Part shown: piece after piece, positions 52,287 through 64,000 of the stretch
Numbering within the stretch: position 1 is the stretch's first letter
Layout: each line of letters begins with the position of its first letter
Assembly: GCA_002269645.1 (NCBI GenBank)
Contig: NIVC01000274.1
Location: forward strand, 116,353 to 180,352
DNA: 64,000 bases
Source: Macrostomum lignano
Lineage: Eukaryota
Direction: 5' to 3'
Notes under the pieces: generated by a model
Seen by the model: only the letters and a program-made list of their open reading frames with translations
Database searches by the model: none
What the model was told of the DNA's origin: nothing
Translations under genes and position numbers: made by a program

Positions 52287-52786
52287 TCAAGCGCCCCTTT
52301 CTACCCCCAGCTCTTTCAGCAGTCTTCCCAATTCATTGTTAGGAGCGCACAAAATAAACTCTGCTCCCGTGCGTTCGCCCTCTCTCCCCGTGCACTCGCC
52401 CTCTCTCCCCAAACACCCGCCCTCGGCGTACACCCCCAACCCCAGTTTTGTCTTACTAAAAATAACAGCTTTAACTAGCTTCCGAGCGATCGACTCACGA
52501 AATCCGCTTGAAATCCCCATATTGTCGAGTCTCCAGAGCATTTCTTTGTCCCAGCGATTCTTCTCCTCAGGAAAATCTCTATACTTAACGTCGTGCCACA
52601 TGCAGACAGAGTCTAGCTCGTTCACAGGCTCATGCCCAGGATTTGGGTTGTTGTTTCCATCCAGCTGTATTTCAAGAGGATTCAAAGGCCCGCAATATTT
52701 ATAGCCGGGAAGTGTCCAGCCTTTGTTTGGATGAGGAAGCTTTTCTACAGTCCATGTGAATCTATTTTACCACCAGAGCGTTGCAT
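52287..52786 (-). CDS. Parvovirus-type phospholipase A2 (PLA2X-like), about 166 aa after repairing one missing base near 52749
   Basis: Reading upstream of the ORF-track start gives KLPHPNKGWTLPGYKYCGPLNPL...EPVNELDSVCMWHDVKY...RWDKEML: Ca-loop-like YxGP, catalytic HDxxY and the downstream Asp. Confidence 0.82.
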
Positions 52787-52815
52787 TATTTTATTTAAAA
52801 TTTTCTTTTTAAATA

Positions 52816-53853
52816 ATGACAGATCAGAAACTTAAAAAACTCTACTACAGCGACAAAGGATTCTTTGTAGGCAAAAATGCCGTTAGTAAACTCATGGAGC
52901 TGAGTAAGGAGCCAAAAGCTACAGTAGAAAAATGGCTCTCTAAGCAGGCTGTCTTTCAAGTCTATTTCCCACCAGTAAAATTTGAAAGGCCCCATTTCAG
53001 TATTTATAAACCTAATGAAGCGCACCAAGCAGATCTTTTGTTTCTCCCCAACGACTCAGGCTACAAGTATGCTCTTACAATTATTGACATTGCTTCCAGA
53101 TATAAGGAAGCTCGCCCACTCAAGACGAAGAAGTCAGAGGTTGTTGCCAGCGCACTGCAAGATATTTATAAAAACTCTCCGCTCACATACCCCCAAATCT
53201 TTATGACCGACCCGGGTAAGGAATTCATGGGTGTAGTGAAATCCCTTATGGAAAAGAAAAACACAGAGATTCGCTATGGCAGAACAAACTTGCACAGAGA
53301 CCAGGCTTTTGTGGAAAGATTCAATCTAACTCTAGCCAAGAGACTATTCACTAAGCAGACAGCGCAAGAACTCAAACTGAGTGCGGGGCAGTACTATACC
53401 AAGTGGACAGAAAGACTCCCCACTGTTATAGAGCAACTGAACAATGAAGTCACACGCATGACTGGATTGAAACCATCCCATGCAATTAAACAAGACACTG
53501 TCGAACTTAAGGCATCTCATAGAACAGACAACAACACGACAACCCCACACAACACACACAACACAAAACACACCTCGAACTACCCTAAGCTTCCAGGAGT
53601 TGAATCACCATACATACTGACAAACTCTGAGTTTCTACGCTTTTTATATCTACCTGGAGAGCTAGAGAAAGACACCAAAAGAAGAGCTACAGATCCATAC
53701 TTCAGCCTTGATGTGCATAAAATAGACAGACATTTTACCTCCGACTCCGGTGACTATTACTTTTTATCTCAAGCCTTTAACCCTAAATCCCCCACGCGGT
53801 CATTCACTAGAGCTGAACTCCTAGTGATACCAGCTGACACAGAAATTAATTAA
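52816..53853 (+). CDS. Retroviral-type (rve) DDE integrase, 345 aa, intact
   Basis: HQADLLFLP...YALTIIDIASRY, MTDPGKEF, AFVERFNLTL. Confidence 0.95.
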   Translation: MTDQKLKKLYYSDKGFFVGKNAVSKLMELSKEPKATVEKWLSKQAVFQVYFPPVKFERPHFSIYKPNEAHQADLLFLPNDSGYKYALTIIDIASRYKEARPLKTKKSEVVASALQDIYKNSPLTYPQIFMTDPGKEFMGVVKSLMEKKNTEIRYGRTNLHRDQAFVERFNLTLAKRLFTKQTAQELKLSAGQYYTKWTERLPTVIEQLNNEVTRMTGLKPSHAIKQDTVELKASHRTDNNTTTPHNTHNTKHTSNYPKLPGVESPYILTNSEFLRFLYLPGELEKDTKRRATDPYFSLDVHKIDRHFTSDSGDYYFLSQAFNPKSPTRSFTRAELLVIPADTEIN

Positions 53854-53869
53854 AATATTAAAATAAAAA

Positions 53870-54316
53870 ATGACAAAGATTGAAACCAGAACCATCAATA
53901 AACTCAATAAAATCATTGAATCAAAGAAACCAGGTATTATATCAATTAAAGGTGCCAAAGTAAAAATCGATCCCACGCAGCAAATACTTCAGTGTAATGA
54001 GCAAAGACACAGCATCACAGATGAAAAGTCAGGAGGAATCCTACCATTAGCAGCTCTTATTCCGATCATTGCAGGCGCTGTAAGTGCCGCAGGTGGTGTA
54101 GCTGGAGGTGTAGCAACTGCTGTTAAAGCTGGGAATGATAGAGCCCACCAGCTGGAATTGCAAAAGATTGCAAGAGACAAAGGTATAACAATTAAGGCAG
54201 GAGAGGGCTGCCCCGATCGTGATGATTGTGAGAATGAAAATTCTATAAGCAAGTCTGACATTGTCAAAGCAATCATGACACTGCACAATGCTGGGTTTAC
54301 AATAATGCGCATGTGA
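53870..54316 (+). CDS. Adenovirus pX/Mu-like virion protein, 148 aa
   Basis: GGILPLAALIPIIAGAVSAAGGVAGGVATAV resembles the adenovirus pX segment GGILPLLIPLIAAAIGAVPGIASVA; candidate protease site SGG|I. Confidence 0.65.
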   Translation: MTKIETRTINKLNKIIESKKPGIISIKGAKVKIDPTQQILQCNEQRHSITDEKSGGILPLAALIPIIAGAVSAAGGVAGGVATAVKAGNDRAHQLELQKIARDKGITIKAGEGCPDRDDCENENSISKSDIVKAIMTLHNAGFTIMRM

Positions 54317-54436
54317 TGAGGTTTAAAACCCCACTTTATCCAGCTTCATAAACCTAACGCTACTGATAGGATGTAGAAACAGTTCAACTTTTCTATCAGG
54401 GTGTACCCTCAAAATTTTTTTTATTTTAGAGAAAAA

Positions 54437-61612: not shown

Positions 61613-61628
61613 CTTTTTAAATAGAAAT

Positions 61629-62842
61629 TTATTTTTTGTTAAACCGTGAAAGCAAAAGTTCTCTTGCTCTTTTATCGATATATTTTCTCTCAAGCATTTT
61701 GTCCAGGATGTTGACAAATTCTTTTCTATTCTCGTCTTTCATTCCGGTCTTTGCCGCTCCTAGAAGAACAGCTAACCGCTTGTAGAATTCAGGCATGCCT
61801 TTTCCGGAAGAGCTTGGAGGTGATTCGAATGATTGGTCAGAGGAGGAACTGTCATGTGGCGCTTGTCTTTGTTGAGGTGTGAATACTCTGTCATTGATTC
61901 GCTTCATTCGTTCTGGGTAGAGCCGCTCTAATTGTCGCCATTCATCTGGGCGCTGGTTTCTGTACTGGGAAATCTCATTTGGCCCTGCTTTTTCAAGCGC
62001 TTCTAGTACTTGTTCGGGTGTGATTTGTTGCTGTGGCGGTGGAGGTTGTTGTGGTTGTGGTTGTGTTGTGGTTGCTGCTGTTGTGGTTGTTGTAGTTGTT
62101 GTTTTGGTTGCTGCTGTTGTGGTTGCTGCTGTTGTGGCTGTGGTTGTTGTGGTTGTTGTCTTATGACCTCTTCTTGATCCGGCAAACCAAACCATTGTTT
62201 AAAGTATTTGTATTTTCTAAACCTGTTCAAGTCAATCCTGTTTTCATGTAAAACTTTCAAAACACCGTTGTTCTTGAGAATGTCTATGTCCCTCTCTAAA
62301 GCGAAGGTAACCAGATCTCTATAATTCTTTAATTGCTTCTCGGATATTTTTTCCTGATTTTTAGTCATGTAGTCGAGTAAACTTTGAGTGAAGGGGATTC
62401 GTTTAGTTTCTGCGCCTTTATTGATTGAAATAGTTTCCTTCGTCACTTCAATGTTGTAATCCGCCGGTTCCCCGGTGATATTTTTTCGCCAGGCGCTAAT
62501 TCCAAATATATATTTTCCATCATCCGTTACGGGGCCAAAAAAGTTATCCGTCACTTTCATCTGCACTGGTTGTCCTGGTTGCTGAGCCTGTGGTTGTCCT
62601 GGTGAAGATGGGATTTTACCCAATGTGTTTTGCAAGTGGCTCTCTTGAATATCATCAACTGCTTCCTTCACAGTGTCGAGGTTTTTCTTCGCTTCTGTGT
62701 ATCCGGGTTTGTGAAATTCGGTGGCTGCTTGGACAAACTCATTGTGGGATTGTTGCTCCTTATTTATTAGCCCGGTAACTCGTTTCTCTGCTTGTGCTAG
62801 CTTCTCCAATTCAGATATCTGCTGTGTACTTTTTCGCTTCAT
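61629..62842 (-). CDS. Q/P-rich Polinton structural protein, about 404 aa after repairing one missing base near 62065
   Basis: ORFs 62003-62842 and 61629-62195 fuse by restoring one CAA CCA unit; the C-terminal RLAVLLGAAKTG...EFVNILDKMLERKYI motif is typical of Polinton core-type ORFs (recollection). Confidence 0.7.
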
Positions 62843-62891
62843 TTTTTATTTTATTTTATTTTTAGTCTAAATGTTAGTCTAGTCTAATTAG

Positions 62892-63536
62892 TCTAAATCG
62901 AACAGAGGAATTTGGTCGGGGGCCAATCATACATCGATGGAGATTAAGCTAACTAGCGTGGAGCTGTACTTAGAAATTATTGAGCCCAAGACTGCACTCA
63001 AAGCTGAATACTTGAAGGCGATTGAGAAAGACATTGATATTGCTTATACAGCTTATATGTGCAGAGATGAGCGGAATGACGCAAGACACAATATTTGCAT
63101 TAAAGAAGGCTCCTGTAGCAATCCAAGGTACATTATTGTCACTATGAGGAATACAACTAATGTAGGTAGATATCTACATGGAAACATTCGATCGATTCAG
63201 CATGAGATCAGTGACAATTTATACCCTGCATTGCCACAAAATGGAAATTTCTCGGAGAACAAGATTAGTAAGTTTTACAATGAACTGTCGGACTTGGCTG
63301 TCAAAGAGAATAACGGTATTGTTTTGACAACCTTGCAGTATAAAAAACTATATCCAATATTTGGTGTTGATGTGACTGCTAGACAAATGCCTACAGACAA
63401 TAGCCCTGTTAACATTGTGACTAATATCGAGCGGAAAGAATTTGGTGCCGCAACGGCTGTTGATCTGTTTATTATCTATGCATTTGAGAGGAAGATCAAG
63501 GTCAATATGATCAATAACTCGTCTAGTAAAGTTTGA
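62892..63536 (+). pseudogene. Double jelly-roll major capsid protein, C-terminal half only (about 214 codons)
   Basis: IKLTSVELYLEIIEP, NPRYIIVTM, LYPALP, KKLYPIFGVDVT and a position directly upstream of penton fit Polinton MCP. The frame is closed by TAG at 62889-62891 with no room for the N-terminal half. Confidence 0.7.
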
Positions 63537-63558
63537 ACAATTTTTTTTCAATAAAAAA

Positions 63559-64000
63559 ATGGAAGCCATAGCGAAAGACTGAACAACATTGTTTCACACT
63601 CTAAGGAGAGCATTCCAATCACTGTAGCGGGTCGCATTACTGAGTCAAACGGAATCTTCATTCAAAAATTGGAGCAACCACTTCGTTTGGATCCCGAGGC
63701 GAATTACCACGTCTATCTCAATGATTTCACTGGGTGGTCAAATGTTCCCAATGTGACAGCGGAAAATAACAAGTTTTATTACAAATGGAAGCGTACTACA
63801 ACAGAGGTTGTGATATTTCCTGTCAGCACACAGAGCGTGGATACTTATAATTACTTCTTGGAGAACGTCTTCACTAAACGAAAGCATTTTGAGATACCGG
63901 ATGAAAGCAAACCAGAAAATAAACTGTTCCCTGTTAGATTAACTTATGATCTAACTGTCATGAGAGTTGTCTTGCAAGTTCATAAGGACGCAGAGGTAGA
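63559..64000 (+). CDS. Minor capsid protein (penton), 5' part; one base missing near 63575; runs off the window
   Basis: After repair: MEAIAKRLNNIVSH...LEQPLRLDPEANYHVYLNDFTGWSNVPNVTAENNKFYY, the Polinton penton pattern; open to 64000. Not in the ORF track. Confidence 0.8.

Follow-up and report, generated by a model that had tools for sequence, protein, structure and literature searches.

The 64,000 nucleotides (nt) of Macrostomum lignano DNA analysed here (contig NIVC01000274.1, positions 116,353 to 180,352; hereafter, the window) are the last 64 kb of their contig, C274, and the region from position 49753 to the contig end at 64000 is a Maverick/Polinton. The reading that we prefer, with a probability of about 85%, is that this element is a very young insertion belonging to a high-copy family, that the one-base losses scattered over its genes are errors of the assembly consensus, and that the deletions in its capsid and protease genes are real, the copy being defective. 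An earlier note made from the sequence (the original prediction) had listed 13 one-base losses, 10 of them in the polymerase gene PolB, attributed these to consensus error in short runs of identical bases, and proposed that the element may be intact.

The element, which begins at 49753, extends past the end of the contig, so that its right side is missing from the window. The 6 nt that precede it, together with the adjoining satellite, were found again beyond the right end in two other contigs, C3520 and C3110. The ends lie 15.3 kb apart in C3110, and the sister copies span 15.3-16.5 kb with terminal inverted repeats (TIRs) of about 460 bp or more; a target-site duplication of 6 bp is present at this locus and in all three sisters for which both ends were found, and the search key was not found in three further sisters. 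These values lie within the range used to define Mavericks/Polintons, namely 13-25 kb, TIRs of 100-1500 bp and a target duplication of 5-8 bp (10.1101/2023.08.22.554363). The defining genes are represented as well: protein-primed PolB (PF03175, above the cut-off on a sister piece) and rve integrase (PF00665, above the cut-off in the window), along with packaging ATPase (PF04665), protease (a weak Peptidase_C5 match) and major capsid protein (PF21738 on sister open reading frames (ORFs), the 3' half being in the window). The two TIRs of the insertion differ by no substitutions and two one-base gaps over the first ~410 nt; because of this identity and of the few, mostly silent, alleles private to the locus, the insertion is dated from sequence as very recent. 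Searching the genome with a 24-nt polymerase marker gives 248 matches against 0 for the control, which translates to at least 248 polymerase-bearing copies, and the polymerase of the window is 97-99% identical to its 37 best other matches. Some of the insertions are clustered: contig C716 carries four marker matches (283521, 309389, 339546 and 376110) inside 93 kb, and pairs are found on C1316, C819, C869 and C522.

The key comparison is between two assembled versions of the same insertion. In a search with the right end of the window, C3520 and C3110 were the two contigs that match unbroken across it. The left flank of C3110 is shared with the window out to 43267 (98-100% identity), including a mariner element, the satellites and the target duplication; since the mariner copy of C3110 contains an extra 177-nt insert, without a match in the window, and the repeat counts also differ, C3110 is probably the other haplotype of the same insertion. 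Between 50524 and 56818 (6.3 kb), the two versions are separated by 1 substitution and 12 one-base gaps, of which 9 are bases missing from the window and 3 from C3110; relative to C3520, the window shows 6 gaps and 0 substitutions in 4.1 kb. When multi-base gaps and the variable tract 58240-58320 are disregarded, the element has 25 one-base gaps over 14.2 kb (18 losses in the window and 7 in C3110) compared to 1 in 6.5 kb of flank (P=7e-4). Twelve of the 13 listed losses are absent from C3110, namely 9 of the 10 in PolB (near 54711, 55106, 55451, 56060, 56063, 56284, 56897, 57103 and 58038) and those in the PLA2-like, Q-rich and presumed penton genes. C3110 holds different breaks of its own elsewhere, and its PolB is not open either. 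The PLA2-like gene is open over 181 codons in C3110, and its longer form is found in short-read contigs of all four runs; at the site in the Q-rich gene, near 62065, C3520 and all four close sisters are longer, too.

Much of the original prediction is borne out by these alignments, in which the PolB losses were placed by pairwise alignment to 11 sisters and then jointly over 32 copies, made up of the window and 31 among the 37 sisters listed. At each of the 13 places (10 in PolB, and near 52748, 62065 and 63571 in the PLA2-like, Q-rich and penton genes) the window has fewer bases than other copies, and at none does it have more; PolB contains no stop in the gap-free codons of the window compared to the open frames of the sisters (1,237 codon positions); and the satellites keep register, with 0 shifts in the 136 units of the 21-mer array at 21535-24427 and none at all in 9 of the 13 arrays tested. 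The window has further one-base losses near 54402, 54404, 58345, 58732, 61051 and 62899. The claim that all shifts are located in runs of two or more bases is not borne out: relative to C3110, 12 of the 18 losses fall in such runs, compared to a background of 48% (P=0.09), and so do 7 of 12 among the listed sites alone. Consensus error is supported for the 12 shifts that C3110 lacks, but the mechanism differs from the one proposed, in that the losses lie mainly at sites where alleles differ and are not the product of homopolymer compression. Compression was rejected as the main cause because 6 of the 18 losses are outside runs and only 3 of the 43 runs of at least six bases are affected. An otherwise intact element with long-read homopolymer errors would accommodate the loss-only pattern, the 12 shifts absent from the second contig, the open integrase and ATPase genes and the TIRs free of substitutions; the distribution of losses relative to runs and the lack, in both versions, of ~660 nt from the capsid gene and of 16-17 nt from the protease gene make this explanation extremely unlikely.

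The losses are associated with differences between copies. At seven of the nine PolB losses absent from C3110, the C3110 allele is other than the commonest one among the assembled copies, compared to a background of ~27 in 1,237 codons (P about 1e-10). Family-wide, 70 of the 161 one-base-short events (29 of the 57 sites) touch a position where at least two copies carry another base, the background being 5%; when single-copy alleles are included, this becomes 97 of 161 over a background of 9%. The probable mechanism is that the copies of this long element (15-16.5 kb) are too alike to be separated and that reads of different copies were pooled; where the copies differ by one base, neither allele would win the vote and the base would be dropped. 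Arrays shorter than 3 kb and unique flank could be anchored, and a repeat of 15-16 kb in hundreds of copies with 97-99% identity could not, so that pooling of a near-identical, high-copy repeat would keep the error local to the element and spare the shorter satellites. In simulated data, one long-read assembler could separate two unspanned copies of a repeat at a divergence of 3% upwards (PMC5411767), polishing leaves residual errors in repeats (PMC8812927), and false consensus sequences with frameshifts have been reported for near-identical Maverick/Polinton-like viral insertions (PMC10120064). The false-consensus artefact itself is accordingly already published; in a literature search at the title level, we found no titles on base loss at allele-mixed sites, and we do not claim priority for this detail. 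The present case resembles these reports (PMC10120064, PMC8812927) in that near-identical multi-copy viral genes look artificially fragmented and errors persist in repeats, and differs from them in that the link between losses and allele differences is drawn for individual sites, from two assemblies of one insertion. Most of the one-base losses are likely to be assembly consensus errors.

The same pattern extends over the polymerases of the family. None of the 33 assembled PolB copies examined (the 32 aligned and C3110) is open; among the aligned copies the longest frame is 675 of ~1,270 codons and each copy has 2-13 frameshifts. One- or two-base shortfalls number 179 compared to 2 excesses, in a count that leaves out six length-variable segments. 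Four length-variable tracts in PolB (54837-54849, 55266-55280, 55832-55871 and 56341-56351) differ among copies by near multiples of 3 (6, 9, 18 and up to 48 nt) and are probably flexible linkers under frame-keeping selection. The dN/dS ratio is 0.22 for shared alleles and 0.18 for single-copy alleles, there is 1 stop allele in the 32 aligned copies, and 16 of the 32 have zero private substitutions in 3,146 gap-free columns; by these measures, PolB substitutions are under purifying selection. Decay after insertion would drive the single-copy dN/dS towards 1 and add stops. Near 56897, 18 of the 32 assembled copies are short; in the short-read contigs, run X17 gives the long form at 1285/1285 depth, and runs X15 and X6 give spanning contigs with extra bases. 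Longer forms at listed sites are carried by short-read contigs from four studies, in a comparison that saw 12 of 136 indel rows and in which the contigs reflect majority forms. Outside PolB, a recurrent one-base loss near 58450 in the protease gene, present in 7 of 17 aligned sisters, adjoins a polymorphic position and follows the same artefact pattern.

If all the shifts were real, the young copy and the whole family would be decaying with a strong deletion bias. The sites that recur as short in up to 18 of 32 copies look like inherited lesions, and the PolB shift near 56565 is present in both versions of the locus. Yet two versions of one insertion are separated by many gaps and a single substitution, single-copy alleles retain a low dN/dS with 1 stop next to some 180 small frameshifts, and short-read contigs carry the long forms, which together leave real decay hardly any probability. 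When frameshift sites were tested for clustering on the tree, 0 of 14 clustered at P<0.05; two in-frame indel controls were likewise unclustered, probably owing to recombination or mosaic consensus. We conclude that the family is probably young and coding-competent, and it likely still holds coding-intact copies.

Several observations weigh against consensus error or limit its reach. Two of the nine PolB losses (~54711 and ~55451) are at sites where C3110 has the common allele, so allele mixing is not the full cause. Near 56565, the window and C3110 carry an identical shift that occurs in no other contig; we consider it only somewhat more likely to be real than not, and it may be a shared error at a private allele. 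In run X1, the long form accounts for only 62/1206 depth at the listed register near 56892. Short-read contigs give family-majority alleles and drop rare ones, and hence are uninformative on a single copy; the verdict of error rests on assembled and short-read contigs, not on locus-specific accurate reads. Being those that match the window best, the 31 sisters are not a random sample of the 248. Finally, as C3110 is probably another haplotype, some of the differences could be true haplotype differences.

Another source of error could be simple low read depth at the contig end. The position of the window at the end of its contig, its 18 losses compared to 7 in C3110 and the location of many copies near contig ends all fit this cause, but copies deep within long contigs (C166, C2087, C2059, C142 and C522) have 2-9 PolB frameshifts, and low depth by itself would not predict that the losses follow allele differences, as they do. 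Low depth as the sole cause was rejected and, as the main explanation, appears scarcely credible; it may add to the error rate at this locus.

The capsid and protease lesions are of a different kind. About 660 nt of the major capsid gene (the start and first ~218 codons) are gone between 62871 and 62900, replaced by ~29 nt of filler, such that only residues ~219-430 of the 430 amino acids (aa) of the sister ORF are present in the window, C3110 and C3520. The junction is found in these three contigs, all from this locus, and the 37 other scored matches do not cross it. Within the filler are two exact inverted copies, of 10 nt and 9 nt, of the capsid sequence that adjoins the right breakpoint. 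Near 58676, the protease gene lacks 16 nt that all 17 aligned sisters have; its frame has 111 codons in the window compared to 132 in one open sister, and the motif just 5' of the truncation is presumably the catalytic-Cys motif. C3110 shares the loss, which is 17 nt there; a pattern search for the lesion matched the window only, as C3110 has one extra gap at this place, and the sharing rests on alignment. Both deletions are likely real. An intact Maverick has been defined as one with all core ORFs open, TIRs and a 6-bp target-site duplication (PMC8097293); because the 5' half of the capsid gene and 16 nt of the protease gene are missing in both assembled versions, and the PolB shift near 56565 is shared as well, this copy is not intact, contrary to the original prediction, and it would be unable to make particles unaided.

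Polymerase-theta end joining characteristically leaves inserts copied from sequence close to the break (PMC4490562), and inverted break-templated inserts have been described in yeast (PMC11724301). The element could have been integrated into the satellite by its own or a helper's integrase, and break repair with a templated inverted filler, either polymerase-theta-like end joining or a template switch in element replication, could have removed the 5' half of the capsid gene. We lean towards deletion after insertion, by host repair, over deletion before it, through replication error and helper-dependent integration. Alternatively, the deletions themselves might be artefacts, caused by a chimeric or mis-corrected read common to the contigs, and the true copy could be whole. 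All four short-read runs contain only the undeleted path and none crosses the capsid junction, in a test that is blind here since the adjoining low-complexity tract was skipped and the filler uncovered. Against such an artefact, three contigs have the identical junction even though the flanks of two of them are of different haplotypes, the filler bears the repair signature cited above (PMC4490562), and many other low-depth internal deletions of the family appear in the short-read contigs; we consider it quite improbable. In runs X15, X17 and X6, about a dozen low-depth joints within 52200-64000 skip 35-1,193 nt (for example, 54204-55106, 59391-60585 and 63143-63355), which suggests many other internally deleted family copies.

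Table 1. Features of the Maverick/Polinton copy and its insertion site (positions in the window)
Feature	Positions	Strand	Evidence and state
26-nt satellite array, insertion target	49520..49752		Tandem Repeats Finder (TRF); left copy of the target-site duplication formed by its last 6 nt (49747-49752)
Left TIR, ~460 bp, starts AGTAG	49753..50214	+	Matches right end of the same insertion
226-aa ORF, no family match	50811..51488	-	Sits in a region that differs among sister copies
PLA2-like gene	52287..52800	-	PF08398 E=8.5e-13; one-base shift ~52748, likely assembly error
Retroviral-type integrase, open	52813..53853	+	PF00665 E=2.2e-8; 346 codons stop to stop
Core protein X-like gene, open	53867..54316	+	PF05829 E=4.2e-7
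Protein-primed PolB, ~1,270 codons, in pieces	54437..58242	+	PF03175 E=1.5e-6 on a sister's 675-aa piece
Adenain-type protease	58345..58680	+	Peptidase_C5 E=0.0022, below cut-off; truncated by 16-nt deletion ~58676
222-aa ORF, hydrophobic segment, no clear family	58734..59402	-	One-base loss ~58732, not in C3110
Coiled-coil-like ORF, 84-nt repeats	59496..60239	-	One unit fewer (in frame) than two close sisters
A32-type packaging ATPase, open	60235..61038	-	PF04665 E=1.3e-6; 267 codons
Q-rich gene	61629..62845	-	405 codons open in C3110; one-base shift ~62065, likely assembly error
Capsid deletion junction, ~29-nt filler	62872..62899		Comparison with sister copies
Major capsid gene (double-jelly-roll), 3' half	62900..63536	+	Sister ORF PF21738 E=9.6e-9; residues ~219-430 of the sisters' 430 aa
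Presumed minor capsid (penton) gene, 5' part	63555..64000	+	Ends at contig end; one-base shift ~63571, likely error

The gene complement is summarized in Table 1. Pfam matches in the window are to PLA2-like, rve integrase, adenovirus pX-like and A32 ATPase families and, weakly, to PolB and the adenain-type protease; longer natural pieces from sisters add PF03175 above the cut-off and the double-jelly-roll capsid protein. The integrase is 100% identical to that of C3110 and 94-98% identical to those of full-length sisters, and the capsid piece is 99% identical to sister residues 221-430. The presumed penton, a 290-aa ORF that lies 3' of the capsid gene and is uninterrupted in both C3520 and C3110, has no Pfam match and is labelled from its position only. 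Between the left TIR and the PLA2-like gene, the segment 50225-52277, with 163-nt repeats and the 226-aa ORF, is replaced in 5 of 6 sisters and common only to L043. The PLA2-like gene itself (52287-52800) contains no 300-nt insert, either in the window or in the sisters aligned with it. The host flank (370-49752) is rich in short-unit satellite arrays (units of 4-41 nt, up to 2.9 kb), the source of most long ORFs outside the element, and contains a Tc1/mariner-type transposase ORF on the minus strand (47459-48613; open over 384 codons, with DDE_3 and HTH matches).

Ten sisters (L035, L038, L041, L044, L047, L050 and L075-L078) were compared with the window over 59200-64000. PolB and integrase are 94-100% shared, and these copies fall into two types in the ATPase region (~55-80% compared to 98-100% identity per 500-nt bin) and, for the capsid pair, again into two types (77-80% compared to 99-100%, the capsid proteins being 82-84% identical); there are four ATPase/capsid combinations among the 10 copies, pointing to free exchange of modules. 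In this respect and in others the family resembles animal Mavericks/Polintons, including adintoviruses (PMC8502044) and vertebrate elements (PMC8097293): the length of 15-16.5 kb, the TIRs and 6-bp duplication, the gene set (pfam03175-type PolB, rve integrase, adenain-type protease, A32 ATPase, double-jelly-roll capsid protein, and PLA2 and pX-like genes), the exchange of virion genes as modules, and the broken appearance of most copies in the assembly. The window copy differs from these elements in having lost half of its capsid gene. Alpha adintoviruses are marked by a pfam03175 PolB with an N-terminal OTU domain and by PLA2X, a PLA2 protein with a C-terminal pX-like domain (PMC8502044). Here, unlike in that description, PLA2 and pX are separate ORFs, the PLA2 ORF giving PF08398 only and the Adeno_PX match being in the other ORF, and no Pfam match to OTU was found in two N-terminal PolB pieces (360 and 415 aa; Pfam only), so that the alpha-adintovirus features are partly seen. 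In three PolB pieces, a weak Endonuclease_7 match (E of 3e-4 to 1.2e-3, below the cut-off; 5e-4 on the 675-aa sister piece) sits immediately ahead of PF03175; this HNH-type match recalls the pPolB2-class Polintons with an inserted HNH nuclease (10.1101/2023.08.22.554363), and assignment to that class would be a lead only. The capsid protein has 14 relatives in the protein database (22-76% identity), none informatively named, and a sequence search of the PDB with the sister capsid gave no match at E<=1.

At least 248 copies place this family near the highest counts listed for vertebrates (287 and 280); in the vertebrate hosts with high counts (287, 280 and 172 copies), the polymerases all look fragmented (PMC8097293). 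A broader picture would be that of a currently active Maverick virus family that exchanges two ATPase and capsid modules on a single polymerase-integrase backbone and seems dead only through an allele-collision artefact, the window copy being a defective-interfering-like genome that lost its capsid and protease in free replication before integration; the basis for a loss before integration is the presence of two or three deletions with almost no private substitutions, and we regard this picture as tentative and rather doubtful. If it is true, intact Mavericks may likewise have been concealed by this artefact in further high-copy hosts whose copies have all been reported as defective. Surveys sort Mavericks into intact and fossil ones by open ORFs, and all 33 copies examined here would count as dead. 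Young, high-copy families would be the most exposed to this error and the best places to seek the still unseen Maverick particles (PMC8097293). There is also a trap of the opposite kind: a copy does not become intact once its small frameshifts have been explained away, the real lesion here being a large deletion that is invisible without sister copies. The window copy is, then, a very young but defective member of a probably still functional family.

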